Both the position numbers and the translations under genes were made by a program. A stretch of DNA of 62,786 nt, counting the filler, from Dugesia japonica (taxonomy: Eukaryota): the NCBI GenBank assembly GCA_001938525.1. It is 7 parts of 7 records of this genome, joined end to end, with 100 filler letters (N's around TTAATTAATTAA, not from the genome) between each part and the next. Parts side by side here need not be neighbours in the genome. Positions count along the whole stretch, not along the records: positions 25,947 to 35,722 come from MQRL01585464.1; 6 more parts are not named here. One strand, given 5' to 3'. Below the pieces are notes generated by a model. It worked only from the letters and a program-made list of their open reading frames with translations. It was not told where the DNA came from and searched no databases. Numbering within the stretch: the first letter of the stretch is position 1; every line of letters begins with the position of its first letter. Below, piece after piece: positions 22,867 to 46,122 of the stretch.

Positions 22867-25299
22867 CAATAATATTCATATTCAATACATATAAGTGATT
22901 TCATATTTCACAATTTCTAGGTTTGCCTGACAGCTGATTTTAATGACAATTTTAATTTTTATTTAATTTATTGTTACTTCTTGTTTTGCTATGTTTAATA
23001 ATGTTGGAAAGAATTCCTTTATTTACTATTAATTATAAATATAGTGTTTTGTCAATTTAATCTTGAACTGAATTTAAATTTATAAATATAAAAAAATATT
23101 TCAGGAAACATTTTTTTACTTTAAAATAAAATAATTTAAAAATACGTTATTATATAATATGTGTGTCGAATAGACAAAGTCGATTTATGTAATGAATTAT
23201 ATGATTAGGGATTACTTTGAAAAAACTTGTTATTGATAACAACGCTATTTAAACTAGATATACACTTTTAACTTAATTACTTCAATTTGCCTAGGTAAAA
23301 CGCTTGAGAAGTTTTATTTAAAAGATAATTTTAAGAGTCAGTATTTATAGTAATTTTTGGTATTTCTGNNNNNNNNNNNNNNNNNNNNNNNNNNNNNNNN
23401 NNNNNNNNNNNNNNNNNNAAAAAAATAATAAAATTTACCACACATTAAAAAGATTGTTAATAAAATATATGAAATTACTACGCTTATTTATTTACAGTGA
23501 AATTGATAACAGAAAAATATTTGAAAATTTTGACAATAAAATTGATAATAATAATGAAGGTGTCTAAAAATATTTAGAACAGAATTAATAGCAGTAAAAT
23601 ATTGATAATTGATGATGAAACTGTTTATAAAATTGATAATAATAGAATCACTGTTTGGATATAAATGTCTAAATAAAATTGCCATTAGATTCGGCATTGG
23701 TACTGCTTTGGAATAATTGAGACACTCATTGATTTCAATTGTTTTGATGATCACATTGAGGTTTGTTGGGTTGTTCTTATTATCCCGTTGATGTTGATTT
23801 GTTGTGATGTTTGTTATGATTATATGTATTGTGTGTATTTCAAAACCCAATAATTTCTTATTCTTTATTTTTATTAAACTACTCATTTTAACTCAGCTCG
23901 TAATAATTCCATATAGTTGATATTGTTTCTGTAATTGTTGTTTTAGTAGCTGGTAAAGTTATTGTTGTTGTCGTTATCGTCATTATTTTTATTAGAATAA
24001 TTTTTTCAAGAATATTTGGAAAATCTTCACTATTCTTGAAGATTACAAAAATAATCATTTAAAATTTTATTCGAAATAGTTATAATTAGTTATTTATTAT
24101 TTTTGAAATAAAAATGTTTTCCATTATATAATATTATATTAAAAACAATTTTTTTTAATTCGTTATTTACAATAAACAAAATATTTTAATTAATATTTTA
24201 AGAAGTGATTTTATTGAATTTTTAAAGCATGGATTTTTTGTAAAAAACCGCCTGCATTTTATTAATCAGAAATTTTGTTTGATGTCAATTTGTATATTTG
24301 AGTGTTATTTACTTTTAGCTATTGTATTGGTTAATTCAGATTCAAATTGAGTGTGGTAATTTTAATTCATATTGTAATCAAAATTGTTTATTTGTAATAT
24401 TTTTAAATTTGTAATTTTTAAACTTTACTTAGTAACTTAATTAATTTGATAAAATTTGTAATATTGGATTATAGTTAATAAAATTCTTACCTTGCTAAAT
24501 GTGTCATATTCATTAAAATGTATTTATCAGATCTTAACTAAGAAACTGCTAACAGATATAATATATAATTTAATTTGTTTTTCAATAGATAACTTTAACA
24601 AGTTTGTATTTAAAATGTTTTGTAATAATAAAAATATTTAAAATTCATAAGGTAATGAAGAGAGTTCCCCCTTATTGGCGACGAAAGTGAGCCACAGTGT
24701 CAATATTAATATTAAGACTAATATGCATTTTATTATTCTTTGGAAACCATTTTCCGATTTCTGTGATTTTTTTAAAATTTATTATTAAGGAATAATATAA
24801 ATCTAAGAAAATATTAATTGCATAGCAACTGTTTTTTATATATATGCTTTAATTTTTCTTTGATAAATTTGAAAATCATTTAATTTAAGATAATACTTGG
24901 CTATAATTAAAATGAATTTTAAAGAAGAATTTTTAAAAACTTTTTTAAAAGAAATTAAAGTTGAACCTAAAATTTAAGGCTTATTTAATTTTTTTGAAAG
25001 AACCAATTAAAATTGTTATTTTTAATAAACATTTCTTCTATTCAAAAACTCCTAAATTCAACCGTTATATAATCTGTTTGTTTATCTGATTCGATTCTTA
25101 AGTCGAGTAAATTAAATAATTTAAATAAGTAATCATTTTTCTAATTTTGTAATGTAAATTAAAATAGTTTAGATGGCTCAGTTAGATGAAATTATATCAA
25201 CAACAAAGTTAAAGAGGATTGACATGAGTAAAAGAGCATATAAGTTGGAGTATAGAAGAATGGAAACAGTTAATATGGTCAGACAAATCATACGTGTTA

Positions 25300-25670
25300 A
25301 GGTTTCAGCATTCAAAACGCGTTTGGAGACTTCAATATGAGTATTATTCCAAATCATGTATGACATGAACAGTCATACAAGATAAAATAATAATGATCTG
25401 AGGATGCTTTGCCTCGAATGGTGTTGGAAGCCTTTACAGGTTAAAAGGAACAATGGATAAAGAACAATATCGTCAAATATAAATTAGATAAATCGTACCT
25501 CCTCAAAAAAATGTTCCCAGATAGTAATTACATTTTCCAGCATGACAACAATCCGAAACACAAAACGAAAATTATTCAAAAATATTTGGAGAGGAAACAT
25601 ATTAAAACTTTGGACTGACCATCTCAAAGTCCAGATTTAAATCCTATTGAAAACGTGTACATTTTTCTGG
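25300..25670 (+). mobile_element. Tc1 (DD34E) transposase remnant
   Basis: RVWRL...IMI*GCFASNGVGSL, FQHDNNPKH and *PSQSPDLNPIENV. Confidence 0.85.
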
Positions 25671-25812
25671 AAAAATCTTTGGTCTTTCCAAAGATTTTCC
25701 ATTTTAAAATTCCAAATTTTTCAAAAACATTTAAACAAAATAGTTAATTAAAACAAATGTTAATTAGAAATAAAACAATTTATCTAAATTAAAATTAAAT
25801 TTATTAAATCCA

Positions 25813-25846
<34 letters not shown>

Positions 25847-25946
25847 NNNNNNNNNNNNNNNNNNNNNNNNNNNNNNNNNNNNNNNNNNNNTTAATTAATT
25901 AANNNNNNNNNNNNNNNNNNNNNNNNNNNNNNNNNNNNNNNNNNNN

Positions 25947-27100
25947 TTTTAATACATTCTCTAATTCTTCATCACAGTTTAGTTCATCCATATTGAAAAA
26001 ATCATTGTTGTCCATAAATGTATCAATTATCATGTCTGTTTGACAAATTTCGTTTTTAATTTTTATTAGGTCAATTGTGTCCCCTCCAACATTAATTCAT
26101 TCCTTTTGGTTTACGTTTTCTTTAACTTTCTGGGAATTATTGTCAATTTTCTTTGACGTTGAAGGTAACATTGTTGTTATATTCTCTTCTTCCACAATCA
26201 TGCATTCTGGACTTTTATCCCATTGTTCCTTTCCCGTTTTTGGTTCCTTTTCTGATACCACTTTTCGTCTTTTTGTATTTGATTCTTCTCTTGTTTGTCG
26301 CAATTTTCTATTATGATATTTCTGTAATTATATTTTGTTGCATTTAAACTGTAGTGGATAAAGATTGATATCGTCTATCCATTCATTTTCAATTTGCAAA
26401 TATATTTCTCTCACTGCTTTTTTTTGTTAGTTTCTTTGTTAGTTTCCGCAATTAATCGTATAGTATATTTTTTTACTAGTAATTCGACCCATTTCTTTGA
26501 AGATATAATAAAATCATTATTAATATATCTCTCTAGATAAGTAATTTTCATAGGATATGGAACTTCCCGTTCCAAATTTTTATATTTAACAAATCTTTTA
26601 TTTTGAGTTAGTGTATCAATTATTATTACATTTAATCCATGAAATTCAATTTTAACTTTAATATATTTAAGAGGATTCCAAAAGATATGAATNNNNNNNN
26701 NNNNNNNNNNNNNNNNNNNNNNNNNNNNNNNNNNNNNNNNNNNNNNNNNNNNNNNNNNNNNNNNNNNNNNNNNNNNNNNNNNNNNNNNNNNNNNNNNNNN
26801 NNNNNNNNNNNNATTATTTGGCTTCAAATGTCGAATAACGACTTTATTTCTTTTATTATTCAGTTCCACAACTTTATTGCCTGTATTATTTAAATTTCTA
26901 AACAAGCACATTTCATTGGAATAACCCTTAAAATACCATAGGATTGTGCTATGCATAGTATAAATTGAAATTTTCTCCATAAAATTTGCCTTAATTGTAA
27001 TATTACTTATATCAACATTTTGAATACAAGTTCCTGATATACATCCACTCATAAATAATACAAATAGTAACAAATATTTAATTGCCGGGTCAGTGTTCAT
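25947..27100 (-). pseudogene. Post-integrase extension: signal peptide plus two FN3-like repeats and a charged tail
   Basis: In frame with integrase: MNTDPAIKYLLLFVLFMSGCISG, then STILWY...VVIRHLKPNN and IHIFWNP...YKNLEREVPYPMKITY (FN3 W...L.P..Y pattern). Continues through a frameshift and stops to the contig end. Confidence 0.5.
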
Positions 27101-27104
27101 TATA

Positions 27105-39929: not shown

Positions 39930-41720
39930 AAAGTAAAAGCTCTTATAACAAAGTTCATTACAAAGGTTTTATTCAAAATAATCTATGGATTTTTCACTAA
40001 TGTCATAATAATTTATTGATACTCAATTGAAAAAATCTCGATTTCTGCAGTCAATGAAATCTTTGAATGCTGTTTTGATATTGCGATGATTTTTGAACCT
40101 TTTATAACTTCAAGAAGTGATCAACATGTTTAGTTGAAAATATGGTGGGTGAGCAAGAGTTTTATACTATAACTTATGGAGTTTTCTGTGCGACAATTCG
40201 TGAAACATTGATACTTGTTTTGTCGTGAAGGGGTATTTATTAGGGACCTGTGAATCCAAAGACTCAATTCGGATTCGATTCGAAATATTTTTGGATTCGT
40301 TTCGAATCCGAATCCAAAATATACCCTTTTCATTGAAAAGTTTTCAAGTTAATAAAATTAAATTCACATTTTAATATTATCGTCTTTTATTGTTTGCAAA
40401 TATCTTGTTGAATACAAATTAAGGTCCAAATTATTATTTATGCATGGTAATAAAGCATATTTGTTTGTATTTATACTAAATATAAATTTATTGATACTTC
40501 CGGCACTTTGATCTTCACCAACTTTTTTGTATCTCTAAGGAACGTTTTAAGATGCCACCATTTCATTCACACTTCACTAAATCAAAGGATGAGAAATATT
40601 ACCATTGTAAAAAATGCAACAAAAAGTATGTAGTCAATGATGGTGGAACTACTTCTCATCTATGGACGCACATACGTGATTTTTACGCTGAAATTTACAC
40701 CACTCTTCAAGCAGAAAAGCAGACCTTTATTAAGAATGATTCAGTCAAAACAAGTCAATCTATCTTGGTCAATCTTTTTAAAAAGCCTTTATCAAATGAA
40801 TCCAAACATAAATTTGATGAAGCTATTTTAGATTTCATAGTTATGGATGGTCGACCATTCGAAACAGTTGCTGGAATTGGATTTAAAAAATTATGCAGAA
40901 CAGTTATATCAGAAGATTATACACCACCACAGCCAACCACATTATCCAGAAGATTATCTTTGTCGATTGAAAATAAGAAATTATTATTTACTGAGAAAAT
41001 CAAATCTCAACTTGAATCTACAAAGTATCATGTAACTTTTGACCATTGGCGTGCATCTAATTATTCTAATTTTCTTGTTATAAATACTATTTATTCCTAG
41101 TTACTGATTGAAACTGGTTGTGTTTGCATCAATTATTTGTGCACTTATTCGTACTGTTCGCAGAAAAATGTTGCAGTAACTGATTACCAGTGAATAACTT
41201 CCGTAGTTAACCAACATGCAATAAATGGAGACTTCTTTAGACGGAGCTTCATTTTCAAAAACTGAAAAACCTTTGAGGTTACCAGAAATAATTTAATTTT
41301 CATTGCAAATAATGATGGAATCTAAGAGAGGATCGGTGGAATACTTTCTAAGGAGAGATATTGCTATCTCTTGTCTCCTTATCATGTAGCATCCTATTTT
41401 TTGACTTTGCCGATAAACTTCAGATATTTAAAAGCAGTTGATTGCAATACATGCATCTTAACAGTTATTTTGGACACAATTTGCCCTGAGTTTTTTCGTA
41501 ATACTTATACAACAGCAGAAGATTGTTCAGTTATCTCTTTATTTTTAAGAGACTACTTTCCACTTCGAAACTTCTGGAACTATTTCTCAACGCTACACTG
41601 AGCTGCAGTACCATCTTCTCCAGCTTTGTTTACAGTTTCAATTACACGGTGACCCAGTGTAAATTCGTGAAGTATAATGATACAAATATTCTATCCACGG
41701 TAACTAGTTTGTCAACTGAT
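39930..41720 (-). mobile_element. Mariner remnant split by a hAT insertion
   Basis: N-half 41720-41095 (FQKFRSG, IGKVKK, VTATFFCEQ..QPV). C-half 40240-39930 (PLHDK, LAHPPY, KRFKN..AFKDFIDCR). The halves rejoin in frame when 40241-41094 is removed. Confidence 0.7.
40241..41087 (+). mobile_element. 5' half of a hAT element: left end plus BED-finger transposase (ORF 40552..41100, truncated)
   Basis: tagggacc end with clustered gaatcc/ggattc subterminal motifs. BED finger CKKC..GTTSHLWTH, DGRPFETVAG.GFK and first catalytic D in TFDHW. Confidence 0.85.
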
Positions 41721-45401: not shown

Positions 45402-46122
45402 CGCTATGACATTTGCTCAGAACTCATTTTCAGGATGAAAAACGAGCCATTTCTTCATCGATTGATTACTTGTGAAGAAAAATGGTTGTTATAACAACAA
45501 TAATAAACGTTCAGCCCAGTGGTTAGACATCCATGAATCTCCAAAGTCCTTCCCAAAACCAAGTCAACACGAAAAAAAGATAATGGTTACGGTATGGTGG
45601 TGTTCAAAAGGAGTGATTCGTTACGATTTCCTATTAAAGGGAGAAATGATAACAGCAGATGAATACTGCCTAGAGATTGATATTATGCAAGAAAAGTTGA
45701 TAAAAATGTACCCAGCATTGATCACTAGAAAAGGTTCAATTCTTTTGCATGACAACGCCCGTCCACACATAGCAAAGCAAACCATGGATAAACTGAAGAG
45801 CCTAAATTATGAAATTCTGAGACACCCACCGTACTTACCTGATCTCTTGCCAACTGATGTCCATTTATTCAAACATTTACAAAATTATTTGAATGGGAAA
45901 AGATTTGAGATCGAAGGGGTGTTAAAAAAGGAATTTGAACAGTTCCTTGCCTCCAGGTCTGCCGAATTTTATCGCATAGGAATGGGAAATCTACCAATTT
46001 GTTGGCAAAAGTGTGTAAACGCTAATGGTTTTTATTTTTATTAATAAACCTTTTGTTTCGGCTCACTTATGATGTTTTAAAATTAAGGTTCAAAAACGTG
46101 CAAAACTTTCTGAACAACCTAA
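45402..46122 (+). mobile_element. Mariner (cecropia-like, DD34D) 3' two-thirds with right TIR
   Basis: ITCEEKW, KIMVTVWW, LLHDNARPH, HPPYLPDLLPTD; end ..ctttctgaacaacctaa|ta. Confidence 0.9.

Follow-up and report, generated by a model that had tools for sequence, protein, structure and literature searches.

A putative second membrane glycoprotein behind integrase in gB-env Ty3/gypsy elements and its remnant in Dugesia japonica

RESULTS

Remnant of a putative surface protein in frame with integrase

The coding segment that follows integrase in a decayed retroelement of Dugesia japonica is read here, with somewhat better than even confidence, as the remnant of a second putative type I membrane glycoprotein, which would form the C-terminal end of a Gag-Env-Pol polyprotein in one clade of gB-env Ty3/gypsy elements. 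The anatomy of this module, taken apart from any role, is held with high confidence. In intact relatives the whole module was found to consist of integrase, a signal, 2 to 3 repeats, a Ser/Thr stalk, a transmembrane (TM) helix, and a tail ending in [ST]-x-[V/M].

The element and the frame lie on the minus strand of the window, by which is meant the whole stretch of DNA analysed (62,786 nt). Frame 27850-26411 was found to lead from the integrase core by way of the C-terminal domain to KYLLLFVLFMSGCISG and to terminate at a stop codon at 26411-26413, with about 190 codons after KYLLLFVLFMSGCISG, a 40-codon N-run included (Table 1). The hydrophobic stretch of KYLLLFVLFMSGCISG is the segment of highest Kyte-Doolittle hydropathy in the piece (2.63 over 11 aa), and a signal-like segment occupies the equivalent position in 7 relatives. 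The signal was judged by hydropathy and residue pattern, with the cleavage site placed by eye; the hydrophobic core is 11 to 14 residues long and, again by eye, ends in small residues in all eight sequences, as in cleaved signals. A profile of the 7 related rows, from which the window row was excluded, matched the window frame at an E-value of 2.5e-30 among 4229 stop-free pieces, and no second match to it was found among these pieces of the window. The hydrophobic signal that an earlier note on this DNA had placed in frame after integrase was recovered, as were both of its N-glycosylation sequons, and the positions that it gave for Trp in strand B and for LKPN and LEREVPY just before strand F agree with the window model. 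The frame is uninterrupted save for two N-runs (27520-27777 and 26693-26812), so that its continuity in the window copy is an assumption. Other copies, to which the earlier note had looked for the residues missing at 26693-26812, provided a counterpart in the closest relative, and the gap was left unfilled.

The protein proved shorter than the 25947-27100 first proposed: positions 26411-27100 are in frame, but the match to relatives ceases at about 26435, where 12 nt are duplicated in tandem, and when 25947-26410 was compared in three frames with 9 proteins no significant match was found (the best was equalled in 22 of 300 shuffles). A candidate assignment of 25947-26410 as the tail of an exonuclease-like accessory ORF was unsupported (164 of 300 shuffles scored as high). 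Repeat 3, stalk, TM helix, and tail, all present in relatives, are missing from the window copy, which is dead, its anchor lost.

Table 1. Features of the element in the window, listed from the module towards gag
Feature	Position in window	Strand	Remarks
Internal signal-peptide-like segment after integrase	27032..27100	-	Basic n-region; hydrophobic core of 11-14 residues; likely cleavage site with small residues
Linker and predicted FN3 repeat 1 (strands A-E seen; N-run takes up F and G)	26813..27031	-	Orthologous repeat of P0004 modelled with 7 strands
Sequon NIT, residue 33	27004-26996	-	
Sequon NNT, residue 71	26890-26882	-	
Assembly gap, 120 N, unfilled, read as X	26693..26812	.	Closest relative has 45 residues against 40 N-codons in the window
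Predicted FN3 repeat 2, strands B-G	26456..26692	-	Model pLDDT about 60-74; closest in structure to FN3 domains of CD45 and fibronectin
Break point, with the beginning of repeat 3, a tandem duplication of 12 nt (26446-26423), and the stop codon	26411..26455	-	
Repeated DNA with broken acidic reading frame, outside the FN3 protein	25947..26410	-	Many contigs; depth like that of the extension
Integrase with H2C2 zinc finger; part of core in N-run; two losses in C-terminal domain	27101..28168	-	Stop 27851-27853
Reverse transcriptase and RNase H, broken	28155..29200	-	
Aspartyl protease, frame common with end of env membrane region	29586..29879	-	RVP E 3e-4
Fusion glycoprotein of gB/chuvirus type (Monjiviricetes) with its membrane region, interrupted by stops and frameshifts	30380..32134	-	PF24664 E 2.6e-20 and 1.6e-11
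Ubiquitin-like region between gag and env, weak	32380..33038	-	Ubiquitin E 0.11; equivalent in L003 E 0.018
gag (Retrotrans_gag, CCHC knuckle), broken	33316..34472	-	

Host element around the frame

About 9.5 kb of the element is visible, at roughly 25950-35400 of the minus strand. Both in the window and in the relative L003, pol has the order PR-RT-RH-IN of gB-type Ty3/gypsy errantiviruses, and env is placed between gag and pol in the window, giving the gag-env-pol order. The fusogen that the earlier note had postulated upstream is present, as judged by two PF24664 matches in the window (Table 1); the same family was matched in L003 (E-value 1.3e-83), to whose env the window env is 34% identical over 548 columns. 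The intact ORF on which inclusion in the survey PMC13524379 depends is lacking in the window copy, while L003 passes as intact. With its stops, frameshifts, and losses, the window copy is thus a decayed relative of the gB-type errantiviruses. As to flanking LTRs, neither a second copy of 34601-36200 in the window nor an internal repeat in L003 was found, and N-runs truncate the window element on both sides. Overall, the window contains a decayed Ty3/gypsy element in which gag, env, and pol follow in that order and the fusogen is of gB/chuvirus type; such (Burro-like) elements are already known from flatworms.

The integrase C-terminal domain of the window shows two in-frame losses (about 18 and 6 residues) compared with relatives. 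A short [RK]-Y-x-[LF]-R motif closes integrase in all 6 distinct relatives checked and is lost at window 27140-27150; it is reminiscent of foamy-virus and similar nucleosome-binding motifs.

Other features of the window include (i) CBP/p300-type acetyltransferase exons (PHD, HAT_KAT11, ZZ, TAZ) at 2839-4587 and 7315-8061 on the minus strand; (ii) a hAT-like DNA transposon remnant (BED finger, Hermes DBD) at 40495-41100 on the plus strand; (iii) a mariner/Tc1 DDE transposon remnant at 45466-46044 on the plus strand; and (iv) a decayed Tc1-like piece, identified by eye, at about 25200-25750 on the plus strand, where it adjoins the gap at the 3′ side of the element. Since the TTAATTAATTAA spacer occurs in many N-runs (e.g., 25847-25946), adjacent contigs are not necessarily contiguous.

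Relatives and distribution of the module

Relatives were obtained as proteins from searches (P) and as loci from contig scans (L). Searching with integrase returned 8 proteins, of which P0002 (82% identical), P0003, and P0004 run on in frame beyond integrase; scans confirmed 16 loci of 97 candidates in metagenomes and 1 of 47 in genomes. Uninterrupted frames of integrase, signal, ectodomain, TM helix, and tail were found in P0003, P0004, L001, L002, and L003, and L017 has the same order of parts with one internal stop before it runs off the contig end. The extension, whose absence from other full-length copies would have counted against the proposal of the earlier note, was present in these other elements, and the membrane anchor that the note had sought was detected in the five with uninterrupted frames as a single C-terminal TM helix followed by a short tail; none is found in the truncated window copy. 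Three repeats are carried by the relatives closest to the window, and the number varies from 2 to 3 across relatives. L003 is a single frame of 3703 aa that comprises Gag, gB, PR, RT, RH, IN, and the module. The gB fusogen and the module are visible together in two elements only, the window and L003, the other contigs ending short of env.

In an integrase tree of 24 rows (L017 standing for P0002, P0005 excluded), the 7 module-bearing rows formed one side of a branch (85/85); this branch was present in 86% of bootstrap trees, and none of 500 shuffles scored as low, in a tree that does contain long branches. Between the integrase motif and the stop codon of the more distant loci L004-L016, no 11-residue stretch with a hydropathy of at least 2.2 was found (13 of 13), though some of these loci may merely be broken there. 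A HMMER search against 1.84 billion proteins yielded 12 matches, 7 of element type, three of them duplicates or near-duplicates of known rows, and 5 others, which scored through summed weak repeats and four of which are canonical fn3 tandems; as a source of a named host donor these five were rejected. A word-index protein search with the window extension found nothing among 437 candidates, an Atlas search with the 96-aa unbroken window piece gave no match, and none was found in scans of viral contigs.

Several further observations were made on these loci. The apparently intact element at L003:97-11208 has two ubiquitin-like stretches and two tandem protease-like domains (Pfam gag-asp_proteas, 2 stretches) in its 3703-aa polyprotein, and downstream of the polyprotein (L003:11375-13473) are a 222-aa frame without family and an RNase_T-type exonuclease (E-value 0.001). 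In L001 (2055-5876) and L002 (2684-6448), the accessory frames downstream encode a C3HC4 RING protein and a long product without Pfam match. L017, with 75 to 82% DNA identity to the window in pol, sits in a bacterial MAG labelled Turicibacter; this label of L017/P0002 is probably due to mis-binning of animal DNA, because of the gypsy content.

Fold of the repeats

The extension of P0004 was modelled by AlphaFold as three domains of 7 strands each (pLDDT about 70-90), after which come a disordered stalk and, at 355-390, a TM helix. The best PDB matches of this model were fibronectin FN3 tandems (Foldseek E-value 6.4e-10; VIA Z 10.0, with a large rmsd that stems from domain orientation), and a single domain aligned with the FN3 domain of CD148 at Z 8.5 and rmsd 2.4 over 81. 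Viral FN3 proteins matched the model equally well. The window model, with X in the gap, was poor (mean pLDDT 47), with a best Foldseek E-value of 0.012 and no match at E ≤ 0.001; its top rows were FN3 domains, namely CD45 (Z 8.5, rmsd 2.8) and fibronectin (Z 8.2, rmsd 2.2), over 77 residues. A language-model search with P0011 returned fn3 at 0.94 with 178 shared features. The 7-stranded beta-sandwich of about 90 residues by which FN3 is recognized is thus seen in the P0004 model and, at lower confidence, in repeat 2 of the window.

The Pfam fn3 gathering score was reached neither in the window nor in P0002 (fn3 E-value 0.21), P0004 (fn3_2 E-value 0.69), or P0011 (none); Pfam gave no match at E ≤ 1 in the window extension; and sequence-profile searches of the PDB found no match. 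On the strength of the models, the repeats are predicted to be divergent FN3-fold repeats below Pfam recognition. For the L001-L003 ectodomains, which matched nothing in Pfam or by sequence in the PDB and align weakly to the window subfamily (hhalign probability 2.6%, E-value 0.017; profile E-value 0.059), an FN3 fold is assumed. The two FN3-like domains of the earlier note are therefore supported in their fold, by P0004, the window, and P0011, though not in their number, the closest relatives carrying three repeats. The note's suggestion of capture from a host receptor found no support: identity to every solved FN3 match was 4 to 18%, and because FN3 tandems are common in viral proteins too, no donor can be named.

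Selection, divergence, and the C-terminal tail

Comparison of L001 with L002 gave dN/dS values of 0.017 for integrase, 0.30 for the repeats (bootstrap 0.16-0.59), 0.44 for the stalk (0.17-1.4), and 0.11 and 0.14 for the TM helix and the tail, respectively, with synonymous sites largely saturated between elements (dS 1.1-2.5). Purifying selection acts on the repeats, although their divergence is faster than that of integrase. Between the window and L017, identity was 75 to 84% in RH/IN and 29 to 43% in the extension.

Class I PDZ ligands are defined by a C-terminal [ST]-x-hydrophobic pattern. All 9 C-termini analysed were found to end in [ST]-x-[VILMF], against 41 of 691 in the background, and 8 of the 9 in T-x-V, against 1 of 691; these 9 represent about 6 related lineages, P0014 and P0018 being without DNA context, and the count excludes truncated or open-ended rows (the window, P0002, P0013/L017, P0015, and P0019). 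The tails fit this motif, and we take them to be predicted class I PDZ ligands. A precedent for contact between a retroviral Env and a PDZ protein is available in the tail of HTLV-1 Env, which binds Dlg according to the accessible part of PMC3395148.

Sequencing-read evidence

Four of 24 sequencing runs (including two of DNA type and the RNA runs X21 and X22) were examined in 30 bins. Contigs from both DNA-type runs spanned all 30 bins, and the summed contig depth over 25947-27250 was 320 to 640, compared with 7 to 28 for most of the long pieces listed; this depth fits many related copies and is not an estimate of copy number. In four bins of X22, first mates were present at 3.1 to 4.9 on the plus strand and 0.01 to 1.1 on the minus strand, with both strands represented in the other bins; this bias would be sense transcription if the library was stranded in the usual way. 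As only 5 of 1436 of these reads reached 99% likeness, they derive from related copies. X21 had zero depth over 26599-27250, which counts against the best reading. Spliced subgenomic RNA, for which the earlier note had proposed to look, had no RNA support among the joints listed (15 of 66), at a depth of 3 to 5×. A contig depth of about 16000 was observed at window 35401-35720, against 300 to 3600 elsewhere, which suggests a high-copy repeat or a portion of an LTR at the 5′ side of the element.

DISCUSSION

On balance, attachment or adhesion for spread, including from cell to cell, is the most likely role of the second glycoprotein. At about even confidence, the FN3 rod would be an attachment or adhesion factor, with the PDZ-type tail holding the rod and the site of assembly at cell-cell contacts before gB fuses the membranes. 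More tentatively, and at rather less than even confidence, we propose a herpesvirus-like division of labour within a single polyprotein with four membrane passages, in which gB is the fusogen and the post-integrase FN3 protein the adhesion protein, whose PDZ tail would build a contact site for transfer, for example into stem or germ cells.

In the main reading, the polyprotein would thread the ER membrane four times: (i) Gag would remain cytosolic; (ii) signal 1 would direct gB into the lumen; (iii) the gB TM helix would bring PR-RT-RH-IN back to the cytosol; (iv) signal 2 would direct the FN3 repeats into the lumen; and (v) TM 2 would leave the tail cytosolic. Signal peptidase would release the FN3 protein from the polyprotein, and FN3 protein and fusogen would be made at about 1:1. 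The main hydrophobic segments of L003 lie at 1208, 1774, 3305, and 3591 (KD19 2.1-2.6). This intact relative suggests release from one polyprotein rather than expression from a spliced message. The charge bias (K/R) in L003 agrees for signal 1 (6 vs 1) and TM 2 (2 vs 5), is indecisive for signal 2 (3 vs 2), and is reversed around the TM helix of gB (3 before, 1 after). Beyond that helix lies another hydrophobic stretch, with a KD19 of 1.1 in L003 and, by eye, greater hydrophobicity in the window; were it membrane-spanning, the proposed topology would fail. Sequon density is not raised in the L003 ectodomain (0.75 per 100 aa, compared with 0.68 in Pol). A complex prediction for the gB and FN3 ectodomains of L003, run without alignments, scored 0.03 against a mark of 0.34; it gave no answer and is evidence neither way.

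Less probable, though still a serious alternative, is a real surface protein that acts on the host cell rather than in entry, whether as a decoy or mimic of an FN3 receptor, in a block to superinfection, or as a modulator of PDZ scaffolds. The succession of FN3 repeats, stalk, TM helix, and PDZ tail is a cellular receptor layout, with CD45, CD148, and cytokine receptors among the matches, and host conflict would account for the rapid divergence of the repeats just as well; however, sequence kinship with any one receptor was not found. The RING and exonuclease-like accessory frames downstream in relatives also favour a host-directed role, as do the apoptosis- and ubiquitin-related domains of Burro elements (as given in the available portion of PMC6431247), but the RING and exonuclease-like genes are separate frames whereas the module is fused to the structural polyprotein. 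An unlikely explanation is that the module is a device for assembly, in which an uncleaved signal 2 tethers the integrase end, the tail sets the site of assembly, and the FN3 repeats serve only as a spacer in the lumen or as a sorting signal. The variation in repeat number (2 to 3) and the stronger constraint on TM helix and tail than on the repeats (dN/dS 0.11 and 0.14 versus 0.30) would suit such a device, but a spacer would need no 2 to 3 folded domains under selection, and the short core with its small-residue end is like that of cleaved signals. That the frame came from a host exon captured by one copy and is carried as a neutral passenger, or that it arose by chance in AT-rich DNA, is very improbable and already largely refuted, for although the window copy is broken and gapped and its extension is blank in Pfam at E ≤ 1, position and frame are conserved across elements with a dS of 1.1 to 2.5, dN/dS is below 1, many contigs of the same species cover the extension, and the profile E-value is 2.5e-30.

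The type of element is known. GAG-ENV-POL elements of Platyhelminthes with an HSV/gB-type env, Smed_errantivirus_1 and _2, were described by Chary and Hayashi (PMC13524379), and in the parts of that work available they resemble the window element in their Ty3/gypsy pol, gB-type env, and GAG-ENV-POL order; long residue runs are common, by eye, to the window env piece and the two Smed rows of the supplement, a likeness that makes a planarian host probable. No post-integrase membrane protein is mentioned there, "fibronectin" occurring 0 times in the main text and, with "FN3," 0 times in 7 supplementary files (figures and GitHub material lie outside this count). Burro/GYPSM1, as presented in the available portion of PMC6431247, has one long ORF with Gag, a ubiquitin/SUMO-like domain, an in-frame env between gag and pol, and PR-RT-RH-IN, together with accessory ORFs, and shares with the window-type element this long-ORF gag-env-pol plan, the ubiquitin-like domain, and the accessory ORFs. 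Burro differs in exceeding 30 kb and in its MATH, BIR, ankyrin, and BCL2-like domains, and no domain after integrase is named in that portion (PMC6431247). None of these four domains was found by Pfam in 13 window pieces or in the L003 polyprotein; with about 9.5 kb visible and none of these Pfam families, the window element falls outside Burro proper.

Extra membrane proteins also have parallels elsewhere. Atlas virus (Belpaoviridae) is likewise a retroelement with an extra membrane protein, its env being Gn-Gc-like and phlebovirus-like, as far as the accessible text of PMC9094657 goes. The MDG1-group sORF2, in the part of PMC11952523 available, is an extra membrane protein for transmission, in some cases encoded downstream of pol, but it is a FAST-like protein of 63 to 107 aa in env-less elements; neither "Fibronectin" nor "PDZ" is used in the sORF2 paper (0 occurrences each). 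Cellular FN3 proteins (fibronectin, CD45, CD148, and cytokine receptors) have tandem FN3 domains in common with the module, and the receptors a single TM helix as well, whereas the module is 4 to 18% identical to them in structural alignment and has a short tail with no catalytic cytosolic domain. Two-component entry is familiar from viruses, in herpesvirus gB with gD/gH-gL and in paramyxovirus F with H/HN/G. Like these viruses, the module-bearing elements combine a fusogen with a second, putative type I surface glycoprotein within a single genome; by analogy the latter may be such a partner, but in this case it would consist of FN3 repeats fused behind integrase in a retroelement polyprotein. 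No description of a post-integrase FN3 membrane protein was found in the literature searched, which covered few subscription papers and in part only excerpts (Repbase reports could hold an annotation); within that literature, the FN3 module behind integrase appears undescribed.

A gB-type fusogen often requires a partner, as in herpesviruses. The putative FN3 membrane protein behind integrase is a concrete candidate for the fusogen partner in env-bearing gypsy elements outside insects, and the polyprotein that it implies, with two luminal and two large cytosolic parts, would be unusual for a retroelement. Furthermore, an unannotated domain is added to a family of elements that is abundant in a regeneration model animal.
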